From Haliotis cracherodii (lineage: Eukaryota), in NCBI RefSeq assembly GCF_022045235.1, contig NW_027266297.1, positions 53,816,001-53,880,000 of the forward strand: a stretch of DNA of 64,000 bases, in the 5' to 3' direction. Made by a program: the position numbers and the translations under genes. The notes under the pieces were generated by a model that saw nothing but the letters and a program-made list of their open reading frames with translations, ran no database searches and was not told the origin of the DNA. Shown piece by piece: positions 15,401 to 48,528 of this stretch (its first letter is position 1; each line of letters opens with the position of its first letter).

Positions 15401-18400
15401 CCTACACCTAGTCACCTACCTGTCTCCCTCCAGCCCTACACCCAGTCACCTACCTGTCTTCCTCCAGCCCTACACCCAGCCACCTACCTGTCTTCCTCCA
15501 GCCCTACACCTAGTCACCTACCTGTCTCCCTCCAGCCCATCACCCGGCCACCTACCTGTCTTCCTCCAGCCCTACACCCAGCCACCTACCTGTCTCCCTC
15601 CAGCCCTACACCCAGCCACCTACCTGTCTTCCTCCAGCCCTACACCCAGCCACCTACCTGTCTCCCTCCAGCCCTACACCCGGCCACCTACCTGTCTCCC
15701 TCCAGCCCTACACCCAGTCACCTACCTGTCTCCCTCCAGCCCATCACCCAGTCACCTACCTCCCTCCAGCCCTACACCCGGCCACCTACCTGTCTCCCTC
15801 CAGCCCTACACCCAGTCAACTACCTGTCTCCCTCCAGCCCATCACCCAGTCACCTACCTGTCTCCCTCCAGCCCTACCCCCAGTCACCTACCTGTCTCCC
15901 TCCAGCCCATCACCCAGTCACCTACCTGTCTCCCTCCAGCCCATCACCCAGTCACCTACCTGTCTTCCTCCAGCCCTACACCTAGTCACCTACCTGTCTC
16001 CCTCAAGCCCAACACCCAGTCATCTACCTGTCTCCCTCCAGCCCTACACCCAGTCACCTACCTGTCTTCCTCCAGCCCTACACCCAGTCACCTACCTGCC
16101 TTCCTCCAGCCCTACACCCAGTCACCTACCTGTCTTCCTCCAGCCCTACACCCAGCCACCTACCTGTCTTCCTCCAGCCCTACACCCAGTCACCTACCTG
16201 TCTTCCTCCAGCCCTTCCAGGTACAGGTGGCCCAGCTGCTCATGCTGCTGAGGAGCTGGAAGTCTCGGGCTGATATCCCACAGTGCTTCATGAACTCCTT
16301 GCCGACATATGCCTTCCAGGTACATCGGTGGTGGCAGCACAGCGCTATCACTACACCCGAGGGCAGCCTAGGAAGGAGGGAACATGTTATTATAATTTGT
16401 ATTTGTCTTAGAGTATACAGTGAGTAAAACATATTACATGAATTGGAATCCATGCATTTATAAGACAAAAGTAGCAATAATGGCCTCCAAGCAGCGTTCA
16501 GCAACCATTTTATTATCCTCATAAATAAATTGTTCAAATATAAGTTGCCCTGGCTGTAGGGGAACACCACAGTCTGCTCTATCATTGCAGCCGCTCAGGT
16601 ATAAATTATTATTTTTTTATTACAAGTCCGCAAAAATCATCTGCTACAGAATTGTCATCTAAATAATGGTGAACGTGGTAGCCCACAAGGAAATGTCACT
16701 AGTCCCTCCTGGCTAATGTTAATTTGAACCCAGTCATCCTTTAGACAATCAAGCTTGGGACCATCTTCCCGAGGCAAGGGAGTTAACTGACCTTAAAAGT
16801 CCAGTTTCCACCCTTGCCGAACTAGGCTGGAATTTCTTGGCTCTATCGTAGGCCCACCAGTGGCTATTACAAGTTATGTCCCTTCTAAGCCTCTCCTATA
16901 GACCAATAAGATTCCACCTCGTACCACTTGCATTTGCTTCAAACATAAGTGGCTCCCAGTCAAGACGATCTGATCGATAATCAAGGTCTATATTGTAATA
17001 AAATGGGTCTTACATCACAAAATGCATCAAATCACGTGAGCACCTTGATTAAAAACATGGAAAGATTTGGAAAATATCTGTTGACAGGGAGTTGGCAGTG
17101 CACATGCTTTGCAAATACTGCCATTGACCGAAATCTGCACAACAGATTACAAACCGGATTTCTATTTGGTTGCGTAATTTTGATTGGACTATGCATAGAC
17201 TCTTTAGTCCAGCCAAAATGTAACTCCATAATACCAGCCTAGTTTGGCAAGGGTGGAAATTGGACTTATATAGTCAGTTAACTCTCTTGCCTCGGGAAGA
17301 TGGCTTGGGACAGAGAAACACATGGATGATGAGCACTACCCATGCAGTCGGGGTCCAATGTTCGTTGTTTAACGCCTCACTCAGCAATATGCCAGCTATA
17401 TGACAGTGGTCTCTACATAATCTAGTCTGGACCAGACAGTCTAGTGATTGACACAGTGAGCATAGATCTACGCAAGGCCAACCTGGGTTGCTGAAGACCT
17501 ATTCTAACCCGGATCTTCATTGGTCTCTGGGTTCAATGACATCATCAGGTCACATGGGGTACTGGGGACATCCCTATGGAGGTTGCCAGGGAACAAAATG
17601 ATAGTGTACTTGTAAGGAAAGTTGGAAGTCTTGAAAAATAGAAGAAAATAATGGGCATTACTTCTACAGGGCAACACTAACAATGATTGAGTGAGTATGC
17701 AGTATCCAGCAATATCACAGCAGGGTACACCAGAAATTGGCTTTACACATTGTACCCATGTCGGGAATCAAACCCGGGTCTTCGGCGTGACGAGCGAATG
17801 CATTAACCACTGGGCTACTTGACAGCCCCAACGCCAACAATGCTTGTGACAGTGTGATTAGTGACTACCTGTGTTTATGTTCTGTTCTGGGCTTCTTGGA
17901 AGGAGATTGTTCACAGGTTTGGTTGTCATCTGACTTGGGAAGTGTCTCAAGTAGACATCTCAGTGCTAGATCTAGCAAAGTGGTGAAAAACAATCCTTTT
18001 GAACCATAAGATTGAAAAGATAAACAAAAATTTATTAGTTGACAAAATCTTATTATTCATTAAACATAGCTGTGTAAAGACTGATATGACTGGCTACCTT
18101 TATATAAATATTTTTGCGACAATACAAATATATCAAATCTGGCATTTCCATCAGAACTTCACAACATTCAGTCCCTGTGGCCTTAATCAGATGTTTACAG
18201 CAATGCAATACCTTGTGAAGATCTGATCTGATGCCATATCCATAAAAAGTCATGTAAGGTCAACCCTGAGTGAATATTCACCGTCCAATAAAATGAAGGA
18301 AGCGTGGGTTCTTGAGCCAATCATATGTCGGCTTTCTGATTGATTTATTGGCTGATTTTAAAGCAATTCATCTTCATTTCTTTAACACTTTGATGACATT

Positions 18401-24400: not shown

Positions 24401-27400
24401 CATCAGCAGACAACCAGGAGGAGATAAACCTTACCACCAAATTTGAGGTGGTCTCACGGTAGAATCGACACCTCTTCTTTTTCATTCGGAACCAAGCATT
24501 AAAAGTAGCTTTATCGCTTACATATTACATACCGGTACATCAATTATTAGATTATCATCCCTGCCAACCTCATGACCAAACATTGTCTTATTGCCCCCCA
24601 AAGACATATTGATGAAAAAATAATCTACTATTTGATTTCCCATGTGTGCACTTGAATGGCACCATGAATCAGTGTTGAACATACCCACCTGTCCATGATG
24701 ATGTATTTTGCTGACGGACGGTTAGTTTTGAAAAGTTGCACGCCCTATATTCTGGAGTTAGAGTTACTAAGTTAACAATCCACCAGTTTATTGTTACTTT
24801 CTGAGAACAAACATTAAACAATACTATTCTTATGTTTACACTTTTGTTGTGTCAAACTTTGATGTGTTGAACTTATGTTTGTCTCAAAGTAAAAGCTTGG
24901 TCCCTGGGTATTCCTTCTTCATTCATCATTTTCTGTTGTGTAGAACTTTGAATAACTCAAAGTATTTACGTAGGTCCCTTCAACTTTGACACTGTGGTGT
25001 TTGTCTGTACCACTATAAGTGTCATGTTAATGATCAATTTTGGGCTATTCAAACATGTGGTTGACAGCATGAACAACGATCCACACTGGTTGGGTACACT
25101 GACATACAATCAGCCAGGTCATTCAACCTCCTGATTCCAAATAGTCAGCATTTATGACCCGCAGTGGGTACCAGGGATCTACTGCCCTGGAATCCCTGGA
25201 AAGTGCATCATCAGAACAAGAAGCATATAGATATTAGGGCTGGGACGAGTTCAAATTTACTACCCGATTCTACCCGGGTACACACTGTTGGTGTCAAGAT
25301 ATAGGTACAAGATGTCCGATTGATTATAGTTTGACAGTAGCCCTGGCAGAATGTTTTTAGATACACGTATAAAACGATGTGATCATGCATACACTGAAGC
25401 TGACTGAAGTTTTAGCTTTGTTCAAACATATTTAAGTCAGAAGAAACGTGTTCATAGTCATGAAGTAATGCGAACATTAGATATTTAAAATTGTCGTGTA
25501 ACCATGTAGTTACATAGTGGATTTTTGTCATGAAACAACATATCACGTGACTAACCACAGGTCCGGGTAGTCCTGTGGGTACCCGGGTCCTACTCAGTAC
25601 CCACCCGACCCGGGTACCCGAGTTTACCGTCCCAGTCCAAATAGATATGCTTGTAAATATATCAGGACGTCATTTACCTCAACAGCATTCTTTGTTACAC
25701 TTTTGTTACATTTCTTTAAGTGTTTTTCCAGACTGTCTTCATAACAGGTGCTGAAACGGAGAGAAAATGAGGTTTCAATTTCATCCATTCTTTCAATGCT
25801 ATCAAAGTGTACATTATTTTCATGATGATGGTTTTGACATCTTCTGTACAACAGAGACCATATAAACATAATAATCTAACTATCAATATGGTCGCTCTGA
25901 ACATGCTGAACAAGAAAAACATGTTAACTGTTATTTGTTCTACTAGCTGGTTACAATGATCAGCTGATGATTTTGAAATTGAAAAACTTACTGTTTTGGA
26001 TCCAGAGGACATGGTATTCTTTTTCTTCCCAGTTGAACCTGCAACAAACAAAGCACACTTTACCAGCAGGTCATGTCAGTGTGTCCAATTAGGAAAGTTA
26101 TAACATAAACTGCCAGGCTGGATCTGGTGGAACAAAATTTTATGTCACAAAATAAGAAATATGAACAGATGAATTGGTATTGGAACAGGAAACTTGCCAA
26201 AAATGTTCGACAATTTGATGTACAGCATTATGATTTGAATCACCTACCAATTCATTTGATTGGCATTTTTAGAAGTTGGTAAGTAACAGTAAAGACAAGA
26301 TATTTTATGGATGGCAACTTCTTTATTCAGTTATGATGCGATGTTTTCGTATAGATCCATATACCATTGTCAAGCATTAAAGGGGCACTGATCTAAAGCA
26401 ATTTCCTGGGACTGGTTGTTGCCTTTGTTGATGTTATTTCCCAGTGAGTACCCGGATGTATAGCAGAAATCTAGACTAGATCGCGACCTGTGCTGCGTCA
26501 TTCGTAAGTTCACTAGTCACTTTTGTTGGTAGTAATAAGGGCATATGGTCACATTGATCAACAAAATGAAATACAGTTTTCGAGATAATAAGGAAATATA
26601 GGTATCTTTGTGGGTAGCATCAGTAATGGTGACGAAGTTTTGATAAGTCACTTGCTTTGTAATTTTGCGATTTTCGTTAACACTATTTTGACTTGCAACA
26701 CAAAGTAAATATTTCACCTGTGCATTGCATTTTTTATAGTGTGTATATCTTTTTACTGTCAAAATTGCTTTAGATCACTATCACAGCAGGAGACATCAGA
26801 AATGGGCTTCACACATTGTACCCATCTGGGAATTTGAACCCGGGCCTTCAGTGTGACAAGCAAACACTTTATCCACTAGGCTACCCCATTGCCCCAAACA
26901 AGTAAGAGAGCAGCACAGTACAGACTAATATACATCTCAGAAGGATTTAAGAAGAACAACATAAGGATGTACACGAAAGGGATTAACATCAACAAAGGAT
27001 AATGGTTGAATGATACAGTGACAACAGAAAGAAGCCAACTGAACATGATGGGGAACAGAAATTAGGGTACGTAGGAAATCATATTCAATGTATTCAGTAA
27101 TGTATTCCTAGACATTTTCAATTGCACAGAAAGGAGTGTTTGTATTTGTATTCATACAGTAACCAAGTTTTCGAGAGACTAGGCATGAGACAATTGATAG
27201 TTATTGCAAAATGGGTTCAAGCACCTCTATATTTGTTTGCTGACTCATGTTCTTAGATGAATTTTAATCTAGCAATTAAATGATAATACAATATTCGAAA
27301 TCTAAAAAGAAAAAAAAAACATATGGAAAACTGAAATGGCTTCCTTGTTTATCTGATACAGTCAACTTTCAGCAAATGTCACGAATGATGTGACCGTTAA

Positions 27401-27661
27401 AATGCTTTATTTTTCACCCTACTTAGTAGTTTATACACTGCTTAACATAATCAATAGGGCGAGTATTCTGAACACATCCTCCGTTTGTCTGTGTCTGCTG
27501 AACTTCCATTTTCTTACCCCCATTACACAGGCGTGCTCAGCACAGTATTTTTGTCCTGTGTTTGGTCTAAATTTGCAGAATCGCCTCTTCTTCGGTAAGA
27601 AAAATGCACAACACCCATCTGGAGGTATACTGTCCATACTGTCAAGCTTCTTAACTTCCAT
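12241..27661 (-). CDS. TRMT13: tRNA:m(4)X modification enzyme TRM13 homolog; 14 coding exons, 1389 nt, 462 aa
   Basis: Hand-spliced CDS: join(27661-27518,26038-25992,25750-25678,24374-24312,23135-23066,22179-22073,20430-20352,19698-19610,19185-19110,18730-18653,17971-17869,16367-16198,15222-15117,12424-12241). All junctions are GT-AG with matching phases. Family motifs: CAFFLPKKRRFC..YCAEH (zf-TRM13 CCCH), RIPCPLDPKHTCYE..LEKHLKKCN (CHHC finger), FVEMGAGKGQLSHW (SAM binding), RLRIDIEHL, GKHLCGAATDLALRCL, IALCCHHRC, SSWA, CKRLIDYGRIKYL, TPENIVL. Confidence 0.96.
12443..14676. repeat. 31-bp minisatellite, ~72 copies, in TRMT13 intron 13
   Basis: Unit CATGACTAGTTCATGACCTGTTAGATATACT with recurrent variants. 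Confidence 0.98.
15117..15222 (-). CDS. TRMT13: TRMT13 exon 13 (acidic linker)
   Basis: tccag|(G)IKQQPEQKDRPEEDVGDSTADEHDIEAADINSAQ(T)|gtaag; required to bridge phase 1 to phase 2. Confidence 0.88.
15335..16215. repeat. 34-bp minisatellite, ~26 copies, spanning the TRMT13 exon 12 donor
   Basis: Unit CAGCCCTACACCCAGTCACCTACCTGTCT(C/T)CCTC; on the minus strand it reads GGGCTGGAGGAAGACAG|GTAGGTGACTGGGTGTA. Confidence 0.97.
16198..16367 (-). CDS. TRMT13: TRMT13 exon 12
   Basis: cctag|LPSGVVIALCCHHRCTWKAYVGKEFMKHCGISARDFQLLSSMSSWATCTWKGWRKT|gtaggt. Confidence 0.95.
16762..17302. mobile_element. MITE, 541 bp, ~70-bp TIRs, 9-bp TSD
   Basis: CATCTTCCCGAGGCAAGGGAGTTAACTGAC...GTCAGTTAACTCTCTTGCCTCGGGAAGATG flanked by GCTTGGGAC at 16753-16761 and 17303-17311. 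Confidence 0.93.
17687..17829 (-). mobile_element. SINE family A copy
   Basis: Reverse complement of 60092-60253 (CACATTGTACCCATGTCGGGAATCAAACCCGGGTCTTCGGCGTGACGAGCGAA). Confidence 0.88.
17869..17971 (-). CDS. TRMT13: TRMT13 exon 11
   Basis: gctag|(D)LALRCLLETLPKSDDNQTCEQSPSKKPRTEHKH(R)|gtagt. Confidence 0.92.
18653..18730 (-). CDS. TRMT13: TRMT13 exon 10
   Basis: ttcag|(G)KYNTISADDHRPVVAMGKHLCGAAT|gtact. Confidence 0.94.
19110..19185 (-). CDS. TRMT13: TRMT13 exon 9
   Basis: ttcag|LDNQHREEQGPKFERLRIDIEHLNL|gtgcgt. Confidence 0.93.
19610..19698 (-). CDS. TRMT13: TRMT13 exon 8
   Basis: tacag|(G)QLSHWVQRAVEKCDKVSFVLVDRGTIRYK|gtaag. Confidence 0.94.
20352..20430 (-). CDS. TRMT13: TRMT13 exon 7 (SAM-binding motif)
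   Basis: tgcag|ASLVGHLDKLQLLKDGVCFVEMGAGK(G)|gtatgt. Confidence 0.94.
20749..21298. mobile_element. Non-autonomous TIR element (~45-bp TIRs)
   Basis: TGAAGGGGTTGTTGTCAACACGGGTACTACAGATATGTACCCC...GGGGTACATATCTGTAGTACCCGTGCCGACAACGACACCTTCA; second copy at 63293-63779. Confidence 0.88.
21697..21975. mobile_element. Truncated inverted copy of the 25235-25640 hAT-like element
   Basis: Shares CTACCCGGACC(C/T)GTGGTTAGTCA.GTGAT, ATGACAAAAAT and CTTCAGTGTATGCATGA in reverse orientation. Confidence 0.8.
22073..22179 (-). CDS. TRMT13: TRMT13 exon 6
   Basis: gacag|(E)HIQDIKTDILSHSCLREELENPSYGTPALRHRKQQ|gtaac. Confidence 0.92.
22504..22628 (+). mobile_element. SINE family A copy
   Basis: GGGTGGCCTAGTGGTTAAAGCGTTCACTCGTCACGCCGAAGACCCGGGTTC plus (CTCA)n tail. 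Confidence 0.88.
23066..23135 (-). CDS. TRMT13: TRMT13 exon 5
   Basis: tgcag|VTVCTVKDEELQSLIDRVNKLYN|gtaag. Confidence 0.88.
23700..24034. mobile_element. MITE with 5-bp TSD
   Basis: TAGAGGTGTTCAA...TTGAACGCCCCTG termini; ACATC on both sides; internal TTGCCC/GGGCAA repeats. Confidence 0.72.
24312..24374 (-). CDS. TRMT13: TRMT13 exon 4
   Basis: gccag|GYHQQGINAGNDDGDAAPQPK|gtttg; conserved INAG motif, phase 0/0. Confidence 0.88.
25235..25640. mobile_element. Non-autonomous hAT-like element, 406 bp
   Basis: TIR TAGGGCTGGGACG...CGTCCCAGTCCAA; perfect 8-bp TSD ATAGATAT; subterminal TACCCG repeats. Confidence 0.9.
25678..25750 (-). CDS. TRMT13: TRMT13 exon 3
   Basis: ttcag|(H)TCYEDSLEKHLKKCNKSVTKNAVE|gtaaat. 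Confidence 0.92.
25992..26038 (-). CDS. TRMT13: TRMT13 exon 2
   Basis: tgcag|VQLGRKRIPCPLDPK(H)|gtaag. Confidence 0.93.
27518..27661 (-). CDS. TRMT13: TRMT13 coding exon 1
   Basis: ATG at 27661; MEVKKLDSMDSIPPDGCCAFFLPKKRRFCKFRPNTGQKYCAEHACVMG|gtaaga. The downstream Met is an alternative start. Confidence 0.9.
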
Positions 27662-28054
27662 AATCAAGCTCAAAATATTTGACCTTAGTGAAAATCTACT
27701 TGAGGGAAATCCCTTTGGAATATCCGGAAGTAAACAAGAACAGTGGAAATGAGATCCGCAGCAACTGTCATTCAGCCTTGTAATTCGCTATGTATATCAA
27801 AATAAAGCACTGGTGTCGTTATCGAAAATATTTTCTATAATCAATATTTTTACCGATACCGCTATACAAGTATGGAGTAGAGGAGTACGATCAAATTAAT
27901 GTATTTGACGTGATATTTCAATGATAATTTACTGCGATACGTACTTTCATGGCGGCGAGCCCGACAAGGGTAGCATTACTTTGCAACATTTGTTGAAGCA
28001 TTTATCATTATTTATTTGTAGTTTCCGGTGGTTTCGTAGAATCTGAAATTCAAA
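27662..28054. promoter_or_regulatory. Bidirectional promoter / 5' UTR region shared by TRMT13 and RAD23
   Basis: 393 bp between divergent ATGs. ETS-type CCGGAAGT 27724-27731 and TTCCGG 28023-28028, YY1-type ATGGCGGC 27949-27956, CRE-like TGACGTGA 27906-27913. Confidence 0.75.
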
Positions 28055-28120
28055 ATGTTAATTACACTTAAAACCTTGCAACAACAAACGTTTAAGGTTG
28101 ATATCGCAGAGGAATCAACG
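28055..28120 (+). CDS. RAD23: RAD23 exon 1 (UBL start)
   Basis: [22 protein letters not shown]|gtaag. Confidence 0.96.
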
Positions 28121-31100
28121 GTAAGAAAAAATCGGCACAATGCCACAAGTGTATTTCCGTCAATAGCTGTGATTACCCACGCGTTCTCTTATTTCCAACA
28201 GTGATATAACTGCTTTCAGCGTAACTGTACTATTTTCTGTTAGAAAAAGAACTATTTTATTTCAGATTTACAGTATTTGAGAGTTGGTAATGAGAGTTTC
28301 ATTATGAGGTACTAATGATGCGACAAGGCCGCAGAACATTCATGAATGTGTCGTTAAAAATAAAATGGCAGTTATCAGTAGATTAGAACTCATCTTCAGA
28401 AATTACACCGCACCCATTTGCGCTTGTAAATGGTTTTGTCAATACATACCACAACCACTAACTAGGTGGTATTTTTACATTCTTAAGTATTTCAAATGTA
28501 TTGATGTGAATTTCAAGATATCCCCCATATACCGACATATATCATGTACACTTTGTATACATATGCTAATGTGAAGTGAATCTGATGTTCTGATCAATTT
28601 ATCGTACATACCAATCACAATATTATTGATAACTTTTTTCTTAAGCATGGTCAGTGAGGTCATACTTATCATTTGCTTCCATCTATGTGATCTATGCATG
28701 TCTCCATGTGTATAGTGCTTATCATGATTATAGGGGTTTCACAATTCACCTGCCATTTACAATAAATGCAGGTGCAAGTTAAAATGTCACCTTAGCAAAA
28801 TGTCACCGATTTCATCAGACGAAAACGGTACATAATCTATGTAGTAGTACATATGTGCTTTATATGATAGTAATATTTATATATCTTTTATTTCTATTAT
28901 ATTGTCAATGTCATCTTGCGATTGATTTCACCATCCACAAGTATCGTTGTCCGCTATCATTGGTGTCAACGGATGTATCAGAGTAGAGGCTAATAAGTAC
29001 TTTAAGCATGTTTTAAGGCAATTAACATTTCACATTTTCATATTTTTTGTAAACCAAGGTAAAAATATGGTGCTGTATTCACCTCCCAAAAGTAGCAGTT
29101 TTCGCTTTTGGCAAGGTTCCATTTTCGCCAATCAGTGTCGTTTTGCTGAGGTTACATTTATGGACAATCATGAAACAAAATTCTAAATCATATTGCATAA
29201 TACGACTACATTACAATGGGCCTAAATGAACTTGTCATGTGATTTAAACATAAACTGGTTTATAGCAACAATCTCAGACAGGCCACATGGAACATTGAGA
29301 AACTCACTAGTAGAAACAACACAAATTATAGTGATATGTACCAATTTGGCACCTGTCTATGCATTATGTACCGATACTTGAAGTAGGTGTATCCTGATGT
29401 CTATGGCACATTATTTCCTTTCAAAATATATATAAACATGATAAAAAAGACAGTAGAGTTCTCTCAGGCACAATACAGCAAAAAGAAATAGCTGAAGTAA
29501 AATTGAACAGTTTTAATTGACTAGCGCTTTCAACTCATACCACATACCAGTCTCATCAGTTGAAAGCACAAGTCAATTAAAACTGTGTTAAATTACCAAT
29601 GGCTATTGGTCTAAAACTGTTGCACACTGATCTAGTTGATTAATCAAATCTTTTATGTAAGGTGACTCGGGGAACTCAAAATATGTGTGTAGCTATTTTG
29701 CCAATTCTAGTTTGCAGGAATCAAATTACACTTAGCTCATTTGCTGGGATGACCAATATATCTTTTTCTGAATAAGCATGTGAAAGAGTTTACATATCAT
29801 TGGTTAATGAGATTCATATAAACAATTTTAATTACTATCTCAGTAAGTAATTTCTATCCCCCTGACAGGAATGCTGGGCAGAATAAGAGTAGGACTCATG
29901 AGTCTTGGACACCGACAATATTTGTTTCCAACTCTCAAAAGACACCATTCTGCATATCAGTTCAGGCTACGTTGATGATTCATGGTTAATGCACATATGA
30001 TTCAAGTGTATTGCAAAATCAGCAAGACTATTCACTAAATGCACTGCTTAATACAGGCACTGCTTAATACAGGCGCATGTGCCTCTACTAAACGCAATGC
30101 TACAGACCAAAATGGTTTTAAAAGGTATGACTTCACTGTGCTAGAAAGGCCAAGAAGTATTTATATCATTTTACAAATCCATAAGAAAATATTCTAGACT
30201 CTCACCAGCGGTCCAGTGTTAGTGACGAACACTGTTTGAGGGCATGGCACAGATATAGAGTGGCAGTCACATCACTGGAAGTGTTGCAGGTTCGAACATA
30301 AAAAATAAACATTTCGCTACATGGACAGTGTAGTCCATTGGGACAGTGGGTTCATCGAACACTGTATTCTGTGTTGCTGGTGCTTGTGTGGTGGAGCAGC
30401 AGCCTAGTGGCCATCAAGGGCAACCTTCACATATGTCACTGACTGTTCCCTCTTCAACAGTTGACATGCGCAACAGTTTGCTATGCACAGTTGTGTCCTG
30501 AGAAGTCTATGTTTGTGGATTTGAATCCTCAATTTTCTGTGATTCCAATTCCTGGTTTGTCAGCACATTACCCAAGTTTGTAGGTTCCTTCAAACATTTC
30601 TTAGGTGGTAGACATCTTAGATGTGCATCACATCAAGAATTCGTCATACCTTACTGTTCAAAGTACCCTGTAACCCATCTTACTGTCTTAACCACTGGAC
30701 AATTGTGAATATTTTTTATTTCCTTATTTTGCTTGAGATATTTGAACCTACACTTTTGTCTTAACTCTTAAACAATAAGAGGTCTGCCCATCTATATAAT
30801 CTAAGGCACTCTTCAGTAGTGCCTGAATCAGATTTCAAATTTTCCCCTGTTATGTTGGCCCCATATATTAAGGGGTTCACCAAAGTGGTAAACCAGATCA
30901 CTCTGATCCAGGGGATCAACACGGCGCAAAGAAATTTTGTAGCATAGCTACTTATTCATGCAAGTACTTATTGTCTCACACAGCAAGGTAAAATAAGTTG
31001 TAATTCACACCTGGTACCTTCAGAATAAGGAATGAGAATATGGCACATTTCAGTTGCAATATTTTTGTAATTTAAAAGTAGATATCAAACATGTGAAAAC

Positions 31101-34100
31101 AAAACTGTTTTCACAACTATGACTTCCTGAAACTGTTATTGTTTTCAAGGAACAGGGGGTATTATGTTGACACAGTCATAGTGGTATACATAATACTGTT
31201 GACATTGATATATCTATAGTGGTAAAGTTATTGATATTCTTTCATAATTAATCTTCTAATTCAAAGTAATAACTACATTGTTGTAATATTATTTTATGAT
31301 CAAGTAGATCAGTGGAGAGATGCAGACATTGTTAAAACTGAAACCCACAATGTTGTGTGTGCATTTTTGTTGTATTTGTAACCATGAACTATATTTTCTA
31401 TGAGAGTTACCTCCATAATGCTAATATGTTTACTCCTGACACTTCAATTATTCACACTGTCCAAAAGTGCTAATACCTCACAACATGGAAGCTGACATTC
31501 CTCCAGGCAGAAATACTGTGATATAACCACATTACTATTCAGAGCAGAGTTCACTCTCACTGACTCACTCACTCACTGACTCACTCACTCACTCACTCAC
31601 TCACTCACTATTGTGTGTTTGCCATTTTACAGGTGAAAGACCTGAAAGAGAAAGTGGAGGGAGAGAAGGGGAAAGAATTTCCTGCTGGAGGACAGAAGCT
31701 CATTTATGCAGGTAAGATAATTTGTCCATGTGTCCATTGTAGTTGTAATTGTAGTTCTGATGGGAAATCTGGGCAGAGTACTCCATTGGCTCCCAGTACC
31801 CTGTGATGTGCTGGTGACGATATGGTGTCACTTTCCTGATTTTGTCATCATGCTCATACAGTGGAATCTGTCCAATTCAGACTCAGTTGAGACTGGTTAA
31901 AAAGTCTGGTTACGGTTACGCTGAGGTCCGGATTACACAGGGTACAGAAAGTTGGACTGAAGAGAAAGTGAAAAAGCAAAGATCATTCATCTTTTTATTA
32001 CATGCACATACACTGCACATAAAGTATTGACATGGGATGGCATTAAATACAGATAAAAACATTCTTGAAAAAGTCATTTAGAACAGACTGCTTATGTTTC
32101 TGAAGAATGTTTTTCAATATCGTTCCTTATTAATAAATGAAATTAAGTAATCGAACAACAAACTGTTAATTTTAATAGGATTACTGTCAGGATCAGCATT
32201 GTTGTTTTAGCTGACAATGACTGAGCTTACTTCAAAGTGAGAGAACATCCAGTCCAGTCCGATTCAGACAGCTTCTTTTCAATAGTAAATTTGTTGCCGG
32301 GACCGTAATTTCTGTCCAAAGTCCGAAGTGTAAAAAGTCTGTGTTAGAGAGTTGTAGGTGAGTTGTGAGTAATGATCATTTATGAAGTAACTGAGGTAAC
32401 CAGAGAAAAATTCAAATTTTCACTGAAATCCAAATTTGACAAAGTCTGATTTGGACAGATTCCACTGTACCCTGTAACTGCATGGGTTGTTGCTCATGTT
32501 ATCAACCACCTTTGGGATCCAAGGTTGAAATATGTGTTAGCAGCTGAAATCATGCTGATCAACCGTTGCATGGATTTATCTAGGCCTGCTCAGAGGCTGA
32601 TATTCGTCCCCAAGTCGGCAACAAGAATTCCCAATTTGAATTAACACTTCCCAATTCCTCCAGATTTACCAAAACAAGAACACTGAAATAATCAAATTTT
32701 GAACAGTATCACTATTTTGTCCCAATTTTCTTGTCAAGGGCACTTAGTGTGGAATCCTAGACAAATCCTTGCTTTGATTTCCTGTGCAGACTCCATGATA
32801 TACATGGCCACCCTCATACAGCTGGAATATTGCTCACTGCAGGATACAGTAAATTGAATAATAGAAACACTCAGTTTAGTCCAAAGAAACCTCTTTGTTT
32901 CTGTGAGGCGAGACTATGGCATATAGAGCTGGTTCATCAGTTGCTTCACAGATATATTTTCTCAAAACCTTAGGTCGGTAGTTGAAATGAAAATTTAAAT
33001 AAATATGTTGTCAAATGTTTAATTCATGCGTGTCTCAACCATAACAGCCAGTTTCAGTTTCTGCGGACATTGGAGTAACAATGGAAGGGCAAGTGTTTTA
33101 CCCTGCGAGCCATGGGAAAGAAACCCAATGAAACTGTCACAGTATTGTCCTGTTACAAGGAAATCCATAGTGATGGGAACCACAGTGCACATTTTCACAA
33201 AGTGATAAATACACTTTGCCAGAGATAAATAAAATTGGCTGGAGCAAGAAGGTGGTAGCAGTAAATTAAATTGCTTCCAGCAATTAGTCACTCCTGCTGT
33301 TCAGCTGACAAACCTGCTGGCAGTAATAGTCAGTTGGTTGAATACTTGTCATATGATGTGTTATTGATGTTGTTTTTCAGGAAAGATTTTAGAAGATGAC
33401 AAGAAAATATCTGATTATAAGATAGAAGAGAAGAATTTTGTTGTTGTGATGATAACAAAGGTAAGTAAAAAGGGTGCTACTCAGCTTTTGATAGGGATAT
33501 TCTGAGTGTGTGACCAGAATGTGTGATTGTTTGTGTCATACACATAGTATCCCATATTGCCATGTTCAGCTTCATGTGTAGTTGATACAAGTAAGTACAC
33601 AGTTCAAGTACACAACTTGCTGTCCTTTAGTTGTTTGTAACAGCATGACATGGCCCAGTATCCCTCGCAAATGTTGAGTAGTATAGTACAGAAAACTCCA
33701 ATGTTTTATATATCTGGTTTTGTTATCTGTATTGATGAGAGAAGGAAAAATGTTTACATACATAACTCAGTTAAATTTTCTCATGGCTTTAGGATTGAAA
33801 ATTACCAAGTCTCGATCAATACAGTCTAAAAATCACAACACAATGCAGGTGCACACAAGGAAGTTATACTGGAGACATGACACAAAAAGGTACCAGTGAT
33901 AAATTGCAAATATTATCTTTCAGCCGAAGGCGGCACCCCCAGCCAAACCTGCAGAGAGCACCAGCACACAGCCAGCTCCCACAGAACCTGCTGCTGCAGC
34001 TGCCCCCGCCCCTGCCCCCACCCAGACACCCACTCCTGCACCCGCACCGGCACCCACCCCCGTACAGACAGAGGCAAAAGACACACCCAAACCTGAGGAG

Positions 34101-37100
34101 GCTAAGCCAGAGGATAAGCCTGCAAGGTGTGTGGCTGCTTGTACAAACTCTGTGTGTGCTTTTTGTTACTAGAGATAAATTGACCCTTAATATCTCGGCA
34201 CATTTATCGTGACATGTTTATTTTGTTTCATTATTTCATGTTTACCTTGATACAAAGTGCATCTTTCATAGTAATTATGATTTCCTTAATCTGTGTAGCT
34301 AGTTACACAATAGTATTCTCATTACTAAGGAAGGGTCATTTCGCTGTGGAGAGTTGAATCCCAGTCCACACAAATTATATTTCTAGGTTTGTCAGCACCA
34401 TACCCATGCTTGTAGATTTCACCAAATTGGTTAATACAGCTTGTATTTTTCTTCATGCTGTCAACCATTGGTTTGCCTGACCCAGACTTGAATTATTTAT
34501 TATTTATGTCTGCTTTCATTTATCTGGAATGTTACTGACTGCTACTAAAAACCAACAATTTCTCATTTGTTAAGTTTTACAAAATTATTGTGATTACAAT
34601 TGTGAACATAAAAGACCCTCCTTCTTCCTCCGTATCAGCATCCCAGCAGCCACCGGGACATCTGCATCTGGCGAGACCCCTGCACAGCTAGCTGCAAGTG
34701 CATTACCCCAGTCAGCCATACAGTCAGCAGAGAGCTCCCTTGTGACAGGCCAGGAGTATGAGAACATGGTGATGGAGATGATGAATATGGGCTTCGACAG
34801 GGAGATGGTGGTGCAGGCACTCAGGGCTAGCTTCAACAACCCAGACAGAGCAGTAGAGTATCTACTAGGGGTGAGTGATACTGTTCTCATTAGGGGTGAT
34901 GGTGCAGGCACTCAGGGCTAGCTTCAACAGCCATAACAGACCTGTAGAGTGTCTGCTAGGGGTGAGTGACACTGTTCTCAGTAGGGGTGGTGGTGCAGGC
35001 ACTCAGGGCTAGCTTCAACAACCCAAACAGAGCTGTAGAGTGTCTGCTAGGGGTGAGTGACACTGTTCTCAGTAGGGGTGGTGGTGCAGGCACTCAGGTC
35101 TAGCTTCAACAACCCAAACAGAGCTGTAGAGTGTCTGCTGGGGGTGAGTGACACTGTTCTCAGTAGGGGTGGTGGTGCAGGCACAGGCACTCAGGGCTAG
35201 CTTCAACAACCCAAACAGAGCTGTAGATTGTCTGCTAGGGGTGAGTGACTGTTTTCAGTAGGGGTGGTGGTGCAGGCACTCAGGGCAAGCTTCAACAACC
35301 CAAACAGAGCTGTAGAGTGTCTGCTAGGGGTGAGTGACTGTTTTCAGTAGGGGTGGTGGTGCAGGCACAGGCACTCAGGGCTAGCTTCAACAACCCAAAC
35401 AGAGCTGTAGAGCGTCTGCTGGGGGTGAGTGACACTGTTCTCAGTATGGGTGGTGGTGCACCAAAATGGCATGAGCGTTTAGACCTGTTTTACTTTACTT
35501 AAACTAAGAGACCACAGAAACTGAAATAATGTTTTAAGTTGGTTGGTTGGGTTGTTGTTTAACACCGCACTCAGCAGTATTCCAGCTTTATGACGGCAGT
35601 CTGTAAATCATCGAGCCTGGACCAGACAATTGAGTGATTAATATCATGATCATCGATCCACGTAATTGGGATCGATGACATGCATCAACAAAGTAGGCGG
35701 GCCTGACCACCCGATCCTGTTAGTCGCCTTTTGCAAGCATAGTCACCTTTTATGGCAAGCATGGGGTTGCTGAAGACCTATTCTAACCCGGAATCAATGT
35801 TTTAAGTGGCATAAAACCACTTTCTCACAGTAGAGATGACTAGTAAGGGAATATTTCTTACTGATAGTTAAGAGCACTATGATACTAATACAATGTTGGT
35901 ACTCCTGATGTGTTGATACGTACAGTCAGCACACCTAATTTAAAGCTTTACAACAAAGTGCCTCATGCCCTGTATATTCTGAAGGGTTAATTTTGGGAGG
36001 TGTCATGCAATGGGATGGAACTTGCTCTGTAATGACATATGTACACTGATCATTTCTCATGAAAACATACATGTTTTGCTTTTAGTGTGCATTACGTCTT
36101 AAGATACCAGATTCATTTAAATTGGAGACTACATGCTGCAACTGCATTAGGAAGATGTTTCTAGCGTCAGAAATGTATGCTATGATGCTTATTCTTTTAG
36201 GGTATTCCTGCTACACCAGTTGCTGTAGTTGATGACCCCCCTCCAGCTCAGCCAGCCCCTGCCCCACCCGCAGCCACGACCGGTGCTCCACCCCCTACAC
36301 AAGCTGCACCCCCTGCTGGTACCCCCCCTGTACAAGGCCCGGCACAGGGGACAGGCTCCACCCCAGCCAGTGCTGCGCCTGTAGGAGGCAACGGTAATGT
36401 CAGACAGGTCAAACGGTGACAATTGTTAGCTACAGTGCTTTTTGTTTGATTTATAGGCAACCAGTTGTGCACGATTACGTTTTTACGACTCGCCAAAGTT
36501 GGTGCTTTGTGAAACTGTTTGCTATGATATTATTATATTAGTAGTTTGTGTATTGGTACAGAGAGGAAAAATAGTTAATTTGTAAAATATAAGGGAATAT
36601 CGGAAAGTTTTGAGCCTGGCACATCAAGACACTGTATTCATTATGTATTTCTTCATTGACTTAAGGATACTGAATACGAATTGTTTGGTCTCAAGTCTCA
36701 TCGTGCAAAACTGGAATGTGGCTGTTGAACATGCTGTAAAAAGCGATTCTCCTTGTAAGAGGTGACTAATGGGATCGGGTGGTCAGGCTGGCCGACTTGG
36801 TTGATCCATGTCATCTTATCCCTATTGCGTGGATCGATGCTCATGATGTCAATCACTGTTTTGTGAGGTCCAGACTTGATTATTTACACACCAGTGTCAT
36901 ATAGCTGGAATATTGCTGAGTGCGGGGTTAAACAAAAAACAAACAAACATGACAGGTGTTGAGTATATAAAGTATTGTATAACAAACAACCTATCTATCC
37001 ATCTTGCATATTTCACTACATAGAGGTATACAGTGAGGCCCTTGCAGTATGACAGGAACTGACACTTAAATGGATATACAGCAAAAAGTCTTTTACTCAA

Positions 37101-38588
37101 CTAAAGATATGTTATTTGTTCTATCATTGAGTGAAGTTTTGGATTAAAACAAATACTTTGCACACCTGTATTCCTGTTGAATCAATCAGTTGGCTTGGCA
37201 GAAGTTACACTTTGGTTGTAAGTTTGTAATCTGTCATGTTATGTTTTCAGCTGGAGACCCATTATCATTTTTACGCTTACAACCCCAGTTTCGGCGGATG
37301 CGAGAAGCCATTCAAGAAAATCCTCAATTACTCCCAGTTTTGTTACAGCAAATTGGTCAGACAAATCCTACTCTTTTAACAGTAAGTATATCTTGCTCAA
37401 ATACTGATTGTTTGATGGCCTCCGTTGGGAATTCCAGAGCAGATTTGGTCCCAACAACCTTTTGTTGGCCATACTCGGTGACTTGATGGATTGAATGGTC
37501 ATACTCAATGACTTGATTGATTGTTTGTTATACCCAAATGGGTTGTAGTTGATAATATTAAATCACTGGTCCAGAACATACCGCTTACAAAGGAGTGTGA
37601 CCTGGCTGATTGTTTTTAGTCATACCCAGGTTCCAGGGAGTGTTGCTCAAGCTATCAACCTATGGTTTGACTGTTATGTAGCTTTGTACCTGTAAAGATC
37701 TGGGTAGAGAATAGGTATTCAGCAACCCATGCTTGCTGTGATAGGTGTCTGACATCTAGGTGTCGTTGATGCATGTCATCGTATCCCAGTTGCATGAATC
37801 AATGACATTGATGTCAATCACTGGATTGTCTGGTCCAAACATACATTTACAGACCGCCGTCATACAGCTGGAATATTGCTGAGTGCGGTGTTAAACAACA
37901 AACAAACAATACGTAGCTAGAATATTACTGACTTGCATAATGCAATATCTGCTAATTCATTTGTCAAATCAATGTTATGGAATATGCTCCAGCAAAAATG
38001 TTTTCTTGTTTCTGCAGACTTATATGATTCATGATAATATTCAGTTTAAAATTGAGGGGTCTCCTTGTGATATTTGAATCTACTAACAACTAGGTACCAT
38101 TATCTGACACATCAAGCTGACATGCCGTGATGTAACTAAAATACTGTTGAAAGCAGCATCAAACCAAACTCACTCACTCACTCACTCACTGATACAAGCG
38201 ATTCAGATTAGAATCCATTTTGGGTGTAGATCTCAGACATATGGAAAATAAAAGGTGTAGTTTGTGTTTAAAATTGTTTACTGTTACATCATGATACCGT
38301 CATCTCCAAATACAAGGCCGAAATAAATTATTAGATTTTCATCCCCACAACCTATCAAACGCCACACATCTTTTTATTGTGCTGAAGTACATACACACAA
38401 AGAAAGTTTAGTATGTTTAAACAAATGTTATTGTCCAATAAGACAATGGGGCTGGGCCCAAGTGGAACACTTCTATTGCCTCTCTAGTGGTAGAGTGTCC
38501 GCCTGGAGAGCGGAAGGTCCGGAGTTCGATCCCCGGCCGCGTCTTACCAAAAGATGTTTAGATATGGTATTTGTTGTTACCCTGCCTG

Positions 38589-38649
<61 letters not shown>

Positions 38650-40164
38650 TGCATGCACATTGCTATTTAAGTGCAATAATTAAACCTCATTTCACCTCAC
38701 CTCAACCTTGTTTCTTTACTGGCTAATATACACCTTTTTTGTTTGTTGACAATAGTGCACACATATTCCATGAACAGTTTGTTTACAAAAATAAAATATA
38801 TAGAATTGCCCCTGTCCAACTTTCAATAACATGTATGCTGAAAATCTAACAATTTTTAATTTTGTTGTGTCTAATGAATTATTGGCTCTGATAACCCACT
38901 GCTAATCCTGCAGATGTGGATCAATGATATTTTGATGGATCCTTGCAGTTGACATAGTTGATTGCAACAGTTGGGAGTAGATATGACTGTGGCAGAGATT
39001 GTGACATGTGTTTTGTTATTTCAGCTAATTAATCAGAATCAGGAGCGCTTTGTAGACATGTTAAATGAGCCACTAGACGATGAAGCAGCAGAGCCCCAGG
39101 GGGCTGGGGCAGGGAGTGGCCAGGGTTATATACACGTCACACCACAGGAAAAAGAGGCAATTGAAAGGGTAGGTTGTTGTTACCTAGTGGAGAATAGGTC
39201 CCCAGTGTCTTACCCTTGTCAACTCATTAGGAATGGGTTATCGTCTCTTGCATGATCACTCACTAAATAACTGACATTTGTTTGTGAAGATCCATGTTGG
39301 AGTACGTCTTCAGCTGCCCATGCTTGTCATAACAGGTGAATAATGTTCTGGTTCAGAATCGATTATTTACAGACTGCTGTCATATAGCTGGAAAATTGTT
39401 GAGTGCAGCATTAAACAAACTAACTTAGAATTCCAGTTCGCCACGATTATGTTTCTAGGCTTGTTAGCGCCATACCTGTGCTCGTGGGCTTCACCAAAGT
39501 GGTTAACGTCTGAGACCTGCATAACTTCAGGCTGGTATAACCCAACTCACTCACTTGACATCATTTTCAGTGTCATGTTCTGTTCTCCATTGTAATATAT
39601 CTTCAATGTATTATGATAAATACCCTGGACGCGTTCGTGACCATAGCTTCATTTCAGAAGTTACATCATTATCTCAATCTCTCCTATCTCTAACTTTGCA
39701 CACCAGTTTTTATTATCCTTGTTGTAGCTGACTGAAGTCTGACAAGAGGCTGGGTTGGTGGGGCTCAGTGACTAACTGAGCATCGTGCCTCAATATGGAG
39801 CGTTGTTCATGCTGTCAGTCACTGGTTTTAGACTGGTCAGTCACTCAGATATGTTAATAGGTCGCTGTGATATAACTGGAATATTGCTGACTGGCTTTTA
39901 AGCAATATTCACTCACTCACTTCCACCTTCCTATCAATACTCTGCCGTGATATTGCTGGAATATTGCTAAAAGCGGCGTAAAACCATGCTCACTCACTCC
40001 TGTCAATATTTGAATCCTGTTTTTTCTTCACTTCGCAGTTGAAAGCATTGGGATTCCCTGAAACATTGGTTGTTCAAGCATACTTTGCCTGTGACAAGAA
40101 TGAAGAGCTTGCTGCTAACTTTTTGTTAACCCAAACATTGGATGACGAAGAGCAACAAAGCTGA
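28055..40164 (+). CDS. RAD23: UV excision repair protein RAD23 homolog (UBL-UBA1-XPC-binding-UBA2); 9 coding exons, 1254 nt, 417 aa
   Basis: Hand-spliced CDS: join(28055-28120,31633-31711,33381-33460,33924-34126,34639-34870,36201-36393,37251-37381,39025-39168,40039-40164). All junctions are GT-AG with consistent phases. Motifs: [108 protein letters not shown]. Confidence 0.98.
29507..29586 (-). mobile_element. Penelope-like inverted terminal remnant with minimal hammerhead core
   Basis: 29-bp inverted repeat; minus strand CTGATGA-GACT..AGTT-GAAA-GCGCT-A followed by ATTAAA. Confidence 0.55.
31552..31608. repeat. (CTCA)n microsatellite, probably a SINE tail, just upstream of the RAD23 exon 2 acceptor
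   Basis: Directly visible; same unit as the SINE family A tails. Confidence 0.85.
31633..31711 (+). CDS. RAD23: RAD23 exon 2
   Basis: tacag|[26 protein letters not shown](G)|gtaag. Confidence 0.96.
31859..32467. mobile_element. Tc1/mariner (pogo/Tigger-like) MITE, 609 bp, in RAD23 intron 2
   Basis: TA|CAGTGGAATCTGTCCAATTCAGACT...AGTCTGATTTGGACAGATTCCACTG|TA. Confidence 0.92.
32569..32771. mobile_element. Small TIR element inserted into an old SINE
   Basis: CATGGATTTATCTAGG...CCTAGACAAATCCTTG termini; SINE family B sequence resumes after it. Confidence 0.6.
33381..33460 (+). CDS. RAD23: RAD23 exon 3
   Basis: ttcag|[26 protein letters not shown]|gtaag. Confidence 0.96.
33924..34126 (+). CDS. 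RAD23: RAD23 exon 4 (Pro/Ala/Thr linker)
   Basis: ttcag|[34 protein letters not shown]...KPEDKPA|gtgtgt. Confidence 0.92.
34639..34870 (+). CDS. RAD23: RAD23 exon 5 (UBA1)
   Basis: atcag|IPAATG...[48 protein letters not shown]|gtgagt. Confidence 0.95.
34805..35460 (+). repeat. ~91-bp tandem repeat, 7 units, spanning the RAD23 exon 5 donor
   Basis: GTGAGT donors at 34871, 34962, 35053, 35144, 35241, 35330, 35425. Confidence 0.97.
35537..35791 (-). mobile_element. SINE family B copy
   Basis: Reverse complement of family B with the duplicated core hairpin. Confidence 0.86.
36201..36393 (+). CDS. RAD23: RAD23 exon 6 (linker)
   Basis: tttag|[20 protein letters not shown]...PVGGN|gtaatg. Confidence 0.92.
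37251..37381 (+). CDS. RAD23: RAD23 exon 7 (XPC-binding domain)
   Basis: ttcag|(A)[43 protein letters not shown]|gtaagt. Confidence 0.96.
37689..37910 (+). mobile_element. SINE family B copy
   Basis: Core through tail ACAGACCGCCGTCATACAGCTGGAATATTGCTGAGTGCGGTGTTAAACAACAAACAAAC. Confidence 0.88.
38476..38703 (+). mobile_element. SINE family C copy, internally deleted, with expanded (CA)n
   Basis: GGTAGAGTGTCCGCCTGGAGAGCGGAAGGTCCGGAGTTCGATCCCCGGCCGCGTC; tail TTTCACCTCACCTC. Confidence 0.88.
39025..39168 (+). CDS. RAD23: RAD23 exon 8
   Basis: ttcag|[16 protein letters not shown]...[15 protein letters not shown]|gtaggt. Confidence 0.96.
40039..40164 (+). CDS. RAD23: RAD23 exon 9 (UBA2, terminal)
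   Basis: cgcag|[41 protein letters not shown]. Confidence 0.97.
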
Positions 40165-42486: not shown

Positions 42487-43850
42487 ATGTGGATGGCCAG
42501 GACAGTCCAAGCATCGTTGACGTGTGGATGGTCAGTACAGTCCAAGCATCTTTGACATGTGGATGGTCAGGACAGTCCAAGCATCGTTGACGTGTGGATG
42601 GTCAGTATAGTCCAAGCATCTTTGACATGTGGATGGTCAGGACAGTCCAAGCATCTTTGACATGTGGATGGTCAGGACATTCCAAGCATCTTTGACATGC
42701 GGATGGTCAGGACATTCCAAGCATCTTTGACATGTGGATGGTCCGAACATTCCAAGCATCTTTGACGTGTGGATGGTCAGGACATTCCAAGCATCTTTGA
42801 CGTGCGGATGGTCAGGACAGTCCAAGCATCTTTGACATGTGGATGGTCAGGACATTCCAAGCATCTTTGACATGAGGACGGTCAGGACATTCCAAGCATA
42901 TTTGACATGTGGATGGTCAGGACATTCCAAGCATCTTTGACATGTGGATGGTCAGGACATTCCAAGCATCTTTGACATGTTGATGGTCAGGACATTCCAA
43001 GCATCTTTGACATGCGGATGGTCAGGACATTCCAAGCATCTTTGACATGTGGATGGTCAGTACAGTCCAAGCATCTTTGACATGTGGATGGTCAGGACAG
43101 TCCAAGCATCTTTGACATGTGGATGTTCAGGACAGTCCAAGCATCTTTGACATGAGGATGGTCAGGACATTCCAAGCATCTTTGACGTGCGGATGGTCAG
43201 GACAGTCCAAGCATCTTTGACGTGTGGATGGTCAGGACATTCCAAGCATCTTTGACGTGTGGATGGTCAGGACATTCCAAGCATCTTTGACGTGCGGATG
43301 GTCAGGACATTCCAAGCATCTTTGACGTGTGGATGGTCCGGACATTCCAAGCATCTTTGACGTGTGGATGGTCAGGACATTCCAAGCATCTTTGACGTGC
43401 GGATGGTCAGGACAGTCCAAGCATCTTTGACATGAGGACGGTCAGGACATTCCAAGCATCTTTGACATGTGGATGGTCAGGACATTCCAAGCATCTTTGA
43501 CATGTGGATGGTCAGGACAGTCCAAGCATCGTTGACGTGTGGATGGTCTGGACATTCCAAGCATCTTTGACATGTTGATGGTCAGGACATTCCAAGCATC
43601 TTTGACATGTGGATGGTCAGGACAGTCCAAGCATCTTTGACATGTGGATGGTCAGGACATTCCAAGCATCTTTGACATGAGGATGGTCAGGACATTCCAA
43701 GCATCTTTGACGTGTGGATGGTCAGGACATTCCAAGCTTCTTTGACATGCGGATGGTCAGGACATTCCCAGCATCTTTGACATGTGGATGGTCAGGACAG
43801 TCCAAGCATCTTTGACGTGTGGATGGTCAGGACAGTCCAAGCATCCTTGA
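42487..43850. repeat. 35-bp minisatellite, ~39 copies, intergenic
   Basis: Unit CATGTGGATGGTCAGGACATTCCAAGCATCTTTGA. Confidence 0.98.
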
Positions 43851-47330: not shown

Positions 47331-47771
47331 TGGGGAGGGTTGTCCCAAAATATGACAAGCATTAGGGGAGGATTGTCCAAAAATATGACAAGCATTAGGG
47401 GAGGATTGTCCAAAAATATGACAAGCATTAGGGGAGGGTTATCCAAAAATATGACAAGCATTAGTGGAGGGTTATCCAAAAATATGACAAGCATTAGGGG
47501 AGGGTTGTCCAAAAATATGACAAGCATTAGGGGAGGGTTATCCAAAAATATGACAAGCATTAGGGGAGGGTTATCCAAAAATATGACAAGCATTAGGGGA
47601 GGGTTATCCAAAAATATGACAAGCATTAGGGGAGGGTTATCCAAAAATATGACAAGCATTAGGGGAGGGTTATCCAAAAATATGACAAGCATTAGGGGAG
47701 GGTTATCCAAAAATATGACAAGCATTAGGGGAGGGTTATCCAAAAATATGACAAGCATTAGGGGAGGGTTA
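47331..47771. repeat. 33-bp minisatellite, ~13 copies
   Basis: Unit GGGGAGGGTTATCCAAAAATATGACAAGCATTA; accounts for ORFs 47208..47780 and 47306..47758. Confidence 0.97.
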
Positions 47772-48528
47772 TTATTTTGAGTTCATTGGAGCATTAGCCC
47801 CCCTGACGCCACCCCTACAACCTACAACGTGTCCCCACGCCGTGGGGTCGTCCTGTCAGAACTCTGTATCGCTTTTTGGAAGGGGCAGGGAACGGATGGG
47901 TGATAGTGTGAAGGCCCATCAACGACGTCGGGAAGGAATAGATATATACATCCGTGGTGGGTGTGGGGTGACCCCAACCTGAAGGACTGTCCAAATTCAG
48001 CCGCCATTGTATCCATACGATCCCCATACCAACTTTTCACGAACATCTTTATTACTTGGTAGACCTATTCTCTCCCGGATCCCCGAGTAGAGTTAGACGA
48101 GAGACACGTTAATATTTCAGTTTGATATGACATAGTGATGTCAAATACATACCAGAATAACCCACAAATATTTACAAAAAGCGATCAATAAATACTGTAT
48201 GATTCGAGAGACACGGGTATGTTAATCCGATAATCCATGTGGCAACTACGGCAATATCACACACAAACCATCATGGATCACGGCTTGAAATCAAATTTCA
48301 GAAGTGTCTTATTGATTTGTTTGTCCTTGTGGCAGGTGGTATGTATTTATGGACTAACCGATCCTTTGATAATCCGGACGTTGACAAGTCGGACCCCCTG
48401 ACACTCCCAGCTATCATAGCACCGAGGTCAGGCACGTCAACAGGGGCAGCTGGTGCTCCACAACGCCTCAACACCGTCTCAACAACGTCTCTGTTAGTTT
48501 TGTGTGTGTATGTTTTTGTTTTTCTTTA

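Follow-up and report, generated by a model that had tools for sequence, protein, structure and literature searches.

How does a cell splice an intron that offers one acceptor seven identical donors, and does the number of donors matter for the gene? This question is raised by a locus of the abalone Haliotis cracherodii. In the window (the 64,000 nucleotides analysed here, positions 53,816,001 to 53,880,000 of contig NW_027266297.1, assembly GCF_022045235.1) the end of a RAD23 exon is amplified into a tandem array together with the beginning of the following intron. The initial annotation of this DNA regarded the array as a VNTR which could tune RAD23 output through splice-site competition and nonsense-mediated decay (NMD). 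In this study, we describe the array and its host gene, follow it in the DNA of another individual and of related species, and compare the tuning model with assembled RNA, with further arrays of this genome and with known systems of the same kind.

Data

Assembled contigs of three DNA runs were used: X5 (organism A, 2019 study), X7 (organism B) and X9 (organism C). RNA contigs of four runs were placed on 33300-37500, X10 and X13 (organism A, one study), X14 (organism D) and X17 (organism B). RNA of the source species is thus represented by two runs of one study. Logan contigs lose minor branches and NMD would deplete its own targets; the RNA result speaks to the major forms.

Results

The host gene

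The host gene is RAD23 and the repeated exon is its fifth, as initially named. The coding span (28055..40164, plus strand) comprises nine exons with GT..AG introns and an ORF of 417 aa free of internal stops. The encoded protein agrees at 417/417 residues with XP_071117740.1, the RAD23B-like record of H. cracherodii, and H. rufescens RAD23 matches it at 413/417. A Pfam search of RAD23 pieces, six of seven of which were matched, placed a ubiquitin-like domain in exons 2-3, a UBA domain in exon 5 (PF00627, E 3.2e-15), the XPC-binding domain in exons 7-8 and a second UBA domain in exon 9, the order UBL - UBA1 - XPC-binding - UBA2 of the RAD23/HR23 family. Residues 199-220, the end of UBA1, are encoded by the repeated part of the exon and are unchanged in four Haliotis records. 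Each of these records has one protein of 417-419 aa with the UBA1-linker junction intact, and among the RAD23 proteins returned none carries the read-through tail. The H. rubra record is flagged as low quality and goes out of frame in exon 6, at about residue 234; this is probably an assembly indel with no relation to the array.

Anatomy of the array

TRF delimits the array to 34806-35460 (period 91, 7.1 copies, 90% matches, score 1034). Its head-to-tail tandem units measure 91, 91, 91, 91, 95, 89 and 97 nt in order, within the 10-160 nt range of exon-intron-boundary minisatellites. The edge unit 1 spans the exon-intron boundary in use, i.e. the donor of junction 34870/36201 (Table 1). All seven donors read GGG/GTGAGT (the slash marks the exon end), so that the splice signal is retained in 6/6 intronic units, and GGGTGAGT occurs on the plus strand of the window exactly seven times, at the array donors. 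TRF, the seven donors and the unit lengths of 89-97 nt all agree with the proposed array of seven tandem identical donors, built from the end of exon 5 and about 26 nt of intron.

Table 1. Features of the RAD23 array and its surroundings (window coordinates) and boundary arrays found in the genome sample.
Feature	Position	Strand	Basis or remark
RAD23 coding exon 5, encodes UBA1, 232 nt; final 65 nt = exonic part of repeat unit	34639..34870	+	Pfam; both junctions in RNA contigs of 4/4 runs; ORF model
RAD23 intron 5, 1330 nt, GT..AG, spliced out whole in RNA contigs	34871..36200	+	skip of 1330 in X10, X13, X14, X17
RAD23 exon 6, acceptor partner of donor 1	36201..36393	+	RNA contigs; ORF model
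Unit 1, coding copy: 65 nt exon + 26 nt intron, authentic donor GT 34871	34806..34896	+	6-10 aligned differences from other units
Unit 2, first intronic copy, donor GT 34962, in-frame TAG 34919-34921, most diverged intronic unit	34897..34987	+	unit alignment
Units 3-7 (91, 91, 95, 89, 97 nt), donors GT 35053, 35144, 35241, 35330, 35425	34988..35450	+	unit alignment; collapsed consensus unit in DNA run X5
Stub, 10 nt, same letters as a unit start	35451..35460	+	in this genome and run X5
Acceptor-type array, 51 nt x 7.9, strumpellin/WASHC5	L013:3532-3937
Acceptor-type array, 104 nt x 7.6, same strumpellin/WASHC5 gene	L013:8354-9142
Donor-type array, 47 nt x 21.9, after cystinosin exon	L027:7157-8182
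Partial case: array starts at PAN-domain exon end, donor consensus of copies decayed	L015:3306-3775	-

Units 3-7 differ from one another at 2-5 positions and unit 2 differs at 4-10 (4-7 against units 3-7). A 6-nt duplication is carried by units 5 and 7, a 2-nt deletion by units 5 and 6. The variants said to be shared by the intronic copies (CCA AAC, GCT GTA, TGT CTG) are shared in part: TGT is present in five of six intronic units, while unit 2 reads CAT AAC and CCT GTA, and unit 7 reads CGT CTG. CAGTAG is found in 5/7 units; the end of unit 1 is CATTAG and that of unit 7 CAGTAT. The motif TGGTGGTGCA was said to lie at both ends of the array; its copy at 35451 is present and the first copy starts at 34806, not at 34808.

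The array in another individual and in related species

The array was found in the genomic DNA of all three contig runs, that is in another individual and in two related species. Since it is present in three lineages, the duplication predates them. Relative to the assembly, X5 lacks 4 nt in the flank and differs at one base; judged from the contig start, this base would lie in unit 7. In X5 the unit with its head-to-tail junction has a depth of 117 and the flanks have 27 and 38.7 (ratio 3.0-4.3), and the multiplicity predicted from the assembled haplotype for X5 words is 2.45 on average; the copy number of this one individual is similar to or somewhat above that of the assembly, as a rough ratio from collapsed contigs. 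Short-read contigs cannot give exact copy numbers, and the values for the relatives are likewise rough estimates from collapsed contigs: a common 46-nt piece of depth 29 against 14.7-17.4 (ratio 1.7-2.0) indicates about two copies in all in X7, and a depth of 238 against 52-65 (ratio 3.6-4.5) about four intronic copies in X9. The two relatives thus have about 2 to 5 array copies, compared to 7 in the window. Two partial reads at the array were obtained from raw-read run X19 (about 1 in 100 of the run).

That the repeat was collapsed or expanded in assembly, and is an artefact of it, is hardly credible, although its exact copy number is unreadable from short-read contigs. Unit junctions and both flanks are present in X5, which differs from the assembly elsewhere, and in two related organisms. 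Moreover, the units have distinct private variants and the locus is single in its own genome (three overlapping matches, all at the array). An assembly artefact, which the initial annotation had named as fatal to its model, is therefore very unlikely to be the explanation.

At position 35042 organisms B and C read TAT, compared to TGT in the intronic units of this genome (5/6; CGT in unit 7), and the common piece of organism B is identical to the coding copy (GAC). Since B and C have intronic units with TAT, TGT at least spread after the split, which in terms of sequence would mean lineage-specific homogenisation or re-expansion from one unit. The likeness of units 3-7 (2-5 differences), the distance of edge unit 1 (6-10) and the TGT/TAT difference between species constitute concerted evolution. 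Homogenisation among intronic units with the coding copy held, as first proposed, is supported by the TGT of 5/6 units here and the TAT of B and C. A duplication kept in three species is compatible with neutrality and also with some role.

The match at 35451 had been read as the seed microhomology of the array. This reading finds no support in B and C, which carry 105 letters of another kind from the last unit to 35459 and have no match at that place. Rather than a seed, 35451-35460 is possibly what is left of a truncated eighth unit, and the 105 letters, the length of 35354-35458, may be a strongly diverged terminal unit in B and C. The 3' flank gave 0 matches in a metagenome scan.

Predicted products of downstream donors

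Read-through past donor 1 reaches TAG 34919-34921, and the computed product is of 236 aa for 6/6 downstream donors; the predicted consequence, a premature stop and a UBL-UBA1 truncation, is confirmed. The computed single pseudo-exon combinations all end in a premature stop (36/36) and none stays open (0/36). The further suggestion that units act as pseudo-exons with plausible acceptors is unsupported, given the low pyrimidine fraction of the candidate acceptors (0.47-0.59, compared to 0.65-0.88 in eight real RAD23 acceptors) and their position 18-23 nt after their own donor. Besides, in organism B, whose first unit has GACACT and CAGTAG, CTCAGTAG is nothing more than the start of the intron. 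The "acceptor" motif is the old intron start, unit 1 of this genome having changed since.

The RNA fold of 34780-35070 gives no sign that donors are masked by structure, as it is no better than that of shuffles (z +1.69; 196 of 200 shuffles fold equally well). The intronic array (590 nt) contains 10 TAGGG and 18 G-runs; the remaining seven RAD23 introns have 0.2-0.7 G-runs per 100 nt. Silencers that lie between two sites in competition repress the site nearer the intron (PMC2095810, PMC5585400). Because mutated G triplets had no effect in F7 (PMC1557585), we regard G-run/UAGGG silencers as a possible helper of donor silence.

Assembled RNA leaves exon 5 by donor 1

The GT..AG skips in the contigs of X10, X13, X14 and X17 show these to be spliced RNA. 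Those of X10 and X13 show no exon differences from the window. One unbroken contig spans exons 4-7 in each of the four runs, and junction 34870/36201 is the only exit from exon 5 among the joints listed (4/4 runs). The skip of 34871-36200 has depths of 49 (X10), 128 (X13), 91 (X14) and 121 (X17). The bin 34851-34991 has depths of 6.65, 17.2, 12.3 and 16.3 in the same order, compared to 6.64, 17.25, 12.32 and 16.25 expected from the exon only. The bin depth is that of the exon alone, and hence no contig covers the intron stretch that direct use of any downstream donor must include. Likewise, none of the four runs has a contig on 34871-34991 behind donor 1, and depth at 34992-35273 is zero in all of them. 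In X17 the array bin 35274-35414 has a mean contig depth of 11.1, with no listed piece or joint for it. Intron-6 pieces of depth about 5 are retained in the same RNA runs.

At a sensitivity for major forms only, none of the joints listed in the four runs represents an alternative product from the repeat. Normal mRNA from the authentic site is the major product in all four, and 34870/36201 is the only junction used as far as the major forms reach; its exclusive use even under NMD block is the outcome that the initial annotation had set against its own model. This rules out the downstream donors as a major route and leaves room for a small leak. A constitutive leak would employ donor 2, perhaps also donor 3, in a few percent of transcripts, which NMD destroys, with a small unregulated effect on RAD23. 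We consider it unlikely. Even donor 2 requires an exon of 323 nt owing to the 91-nt unit, no contig lies on 34871-34991 in any of the four RNA runs, and in the F7, LMNB2 and PDGF arrays the authentic donor alone is used (PMC1557585). On the other hand, the donors are identical to the real one, rare forms are invisible in contigs, and the products would be hidden since 6/6 donor uses and 36/36 pseudo-exons give a premature stop; for leaky use CBS and 6-16 provide the precedent (PMC1557585).

Apart from the array, two inverted copies of a dispersed SINE-like repeat (35542-35757 and 36732-36948, 80-81% complementary) flank RAD23 exon 6. They show very high RNA depth, which comes from other copies. 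The two could pair across exon 6; neither skipping nor back-splicing of this exon is among the joints listed in the RNA runs.

Boundary arrays elsewhere in the genome

The TRM13 neighbour in the same window appears, by its sequence, to bear a similar array (15345-16215, minus strand), with 25.7 copies of a 34-nt unit and 25 putative CAG/GTAG donors after an exon ending at 16198. A 31-nt minisatellite of 72 copies (12443-14674, minus strand) ends about 19 nt before a TRM13 acceptor; its units carry a branch-point-like CTAAC and AG/GT, and no copy of the exon start. More minisatellites, for which no exon boundary was noticed, lie at 42487-43850 (35 nt x 39) and 47332-47772 (33 nt x 13.4). Near 26000-26045 (window about 26000-28055) the minus strand has a stretch resembling an exon, which suggests a head-to-head arrangement of RAD23 with TRM13 or another gene.

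The frequency of boundary arrays was sampled with TRF in 80 evenly spaced 10-kb pieces (800 kb) of the same contig. From 276 non-overlapping arrays, minisatellites were filtered by a period of 20-300, at least 2.5 copies, at least 80% matches and an entropy of at least 1.7. This left 93 minisatellites, one per 8.6 kb. Judged from DNA sequence alone, three of them clearly and one partially span a coding boundary; they lie in 3/80 pieces. An ORF filter with Pfam yielded 20 candidates from 15/93 arrays and two Pfam hits. Two of the cases were chosen by eye, L013:8354-9142, of which the filter caught the wrong strand only, and the one in L027, a candidate that had no Pfam hit. The count is therefore a lower bound and not blind. 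Another array, L067:1549-1961, has donor-like units and was rejected, no coding exon being found. In a loose test, blind to a few percent, the 93 units showed no enrichment of donor motifs (21, compared to 20.3 +/- 3.7 in shuffles), nor of acceptor motifs (7, compared to 7.4). By chance, about 2% of seeds of 50-65 nt would overlap exon boundaries, as estimated from gene counts. The observed share of 3-4% is near this value and calls for no special process. Extrapolated from this sample, provided that it is representative, boundary arrays would number thousands genome-wide.

Discussion

We conclude, with a probability of roughly 0.8, that the RAD23 array is a minisatellite over the exon 5/intron 5 boundary, that assembled RNA uses donor 1 only, and that the six further copies are silent neutral passengers. 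The array would have arisen before the split from B and C, when 65 nt of exon and about 26-30 nt of intron were duplicated once in tandem. The intronic unit may then have been expanded and homogenised in each lineage, to about one extra copy in B, about four in C and six here, probably by unequal crossing-over or slippage, with the coding copy under purifying selection. The silence of the copies can be understood as exon definition from the acceptor to the nearest donor, which amounts to the most-upstream-donor rule of F7: exon 5 reaches its nearest donor after 232 nt, and any other donor would require an exon of 323-786 nt. Dense UAGGG and G-runs possibly help the choice of donor 1. As a backstop, a rare mis-splice would run into TAG 34919 and be likely cleared by NMD.

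Tuning of RAD23 output by the array is unsupported. In the model initially put forward, copy number sets the share of transcripts that goes to NMD or to a truncated UBL-UBA1 protein. Competition between donors is at odds with 34870/36201 as the sole exon 5 exit listed in 4/4 runs, with the exon-only depth and with the non-competing donors of F7, where deletion of units from six to one left splicing unchanged (PMC1557585). Organism B, with about one extra unit, uses the same junction, none of the joints listed in the RNA runs is an alternative product, and such arrays also occur in TRM13, strumpellin and cystinosin, genes that have no relation to one another, which is what a mutational by-product would give. 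Although copy number differs between species, X5 is one base off the assembly in what the contig start suggests is unit 7, and human VNTRs can alter splicing and expression, as for ABCA7 (PMC6660495) and, by the title of a paper cited in PMC2630376, CBS, we judge this model very improbable. Equally far-fetched is a copy-number rheostat, by which donors 2-7 divert RAD23 to NMD or to a truncated shuttle factor in unsampled tissues or under stress, abalone arrays, which may number thousands, serving as tunable sinks.

As it stands, the array is one more exon-boundary minisatellite which leaves the mRNA intact, and carries little weight. Here a mollusc, with seven identical donors on offer, follows the most-upstream-donor outcome. 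Related organisms provide a natural copy-number series (about 2, 5 and 7) suited to non-mammalian minigene and long-read work. By the sample, with three clear cases and one partial case in 0.8 Mb, such arrays seem frequent in this genome, and a catalogue of them could put the mirage model of intron gain to the test. Were RAD23 tuned by copy number, a wild population would have its DNA repair and proteasome shuttling tied to a mutable repeat.

Comparison with known systems

A literature search returned no paper on the RAD23 locus in Haliotis, nor, among the matches listed, one on such arrays in abalone, which is no proof of absence. Comparable arrays are known from other genes. The 37-bp VNTR in human F7 IVS7 has 5-9 identical donors for one acceptor, of which only the most upstream is used, and identical downstream donors do not compete (PMC1557585). 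RAD23 resembles it in the first unit over the exon-intron boundary, the repeated identical donors and splicing from the most upstream of them; it differs in its 91-nt unit with 65 nt of exon, in its GGG/GTGAGT signal and in being from a mollusc, whereas F7 was studied in mammalian cells. The LMNB2 (100-bp unit) and PDGF (81-bp unit) arrays are similar in unit length and likewise use the authentic donor only (PMC1557585). In CBS and the interferon-inducible 6-16 gene a donor is also found in each unit, but the first two pseudo-sites are used beside the authentic one (PMC1557585), and no such use was seen at RAD23. The 31-bp VNTR in human CBS intron 13 reiterates the donor in each unit and, by the title of a paper cited there, is among the human repeats that can alter splicing (PMC2630376). 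ABCA7 intron 18 is a model for the tuning idea: VNTR length is associated with lower expression and altered splicing (PMC6660495), yet the effect scales with expansions of several kb and was shown by association. The amphioxus "mirages" in Adh3, BflGb6, BflGb9, troponin C and PGBD5 (PMC3087553, PMC3902484) are, like the RAD23 array, tandem duplications of invertebrate exon-intron boundaries, with units of 10-160 nt, concerted evolution that excludes edge units and no aberrant mRNA seen; they belong to another phylum and somatic instability is reported for Adh3, whereas the RAD23 array was traced across three related organisms. With the five defining features examined found at this locus, the RAD23 array is an exon-intron-boundary minisatellite of the F7 and mirage type.
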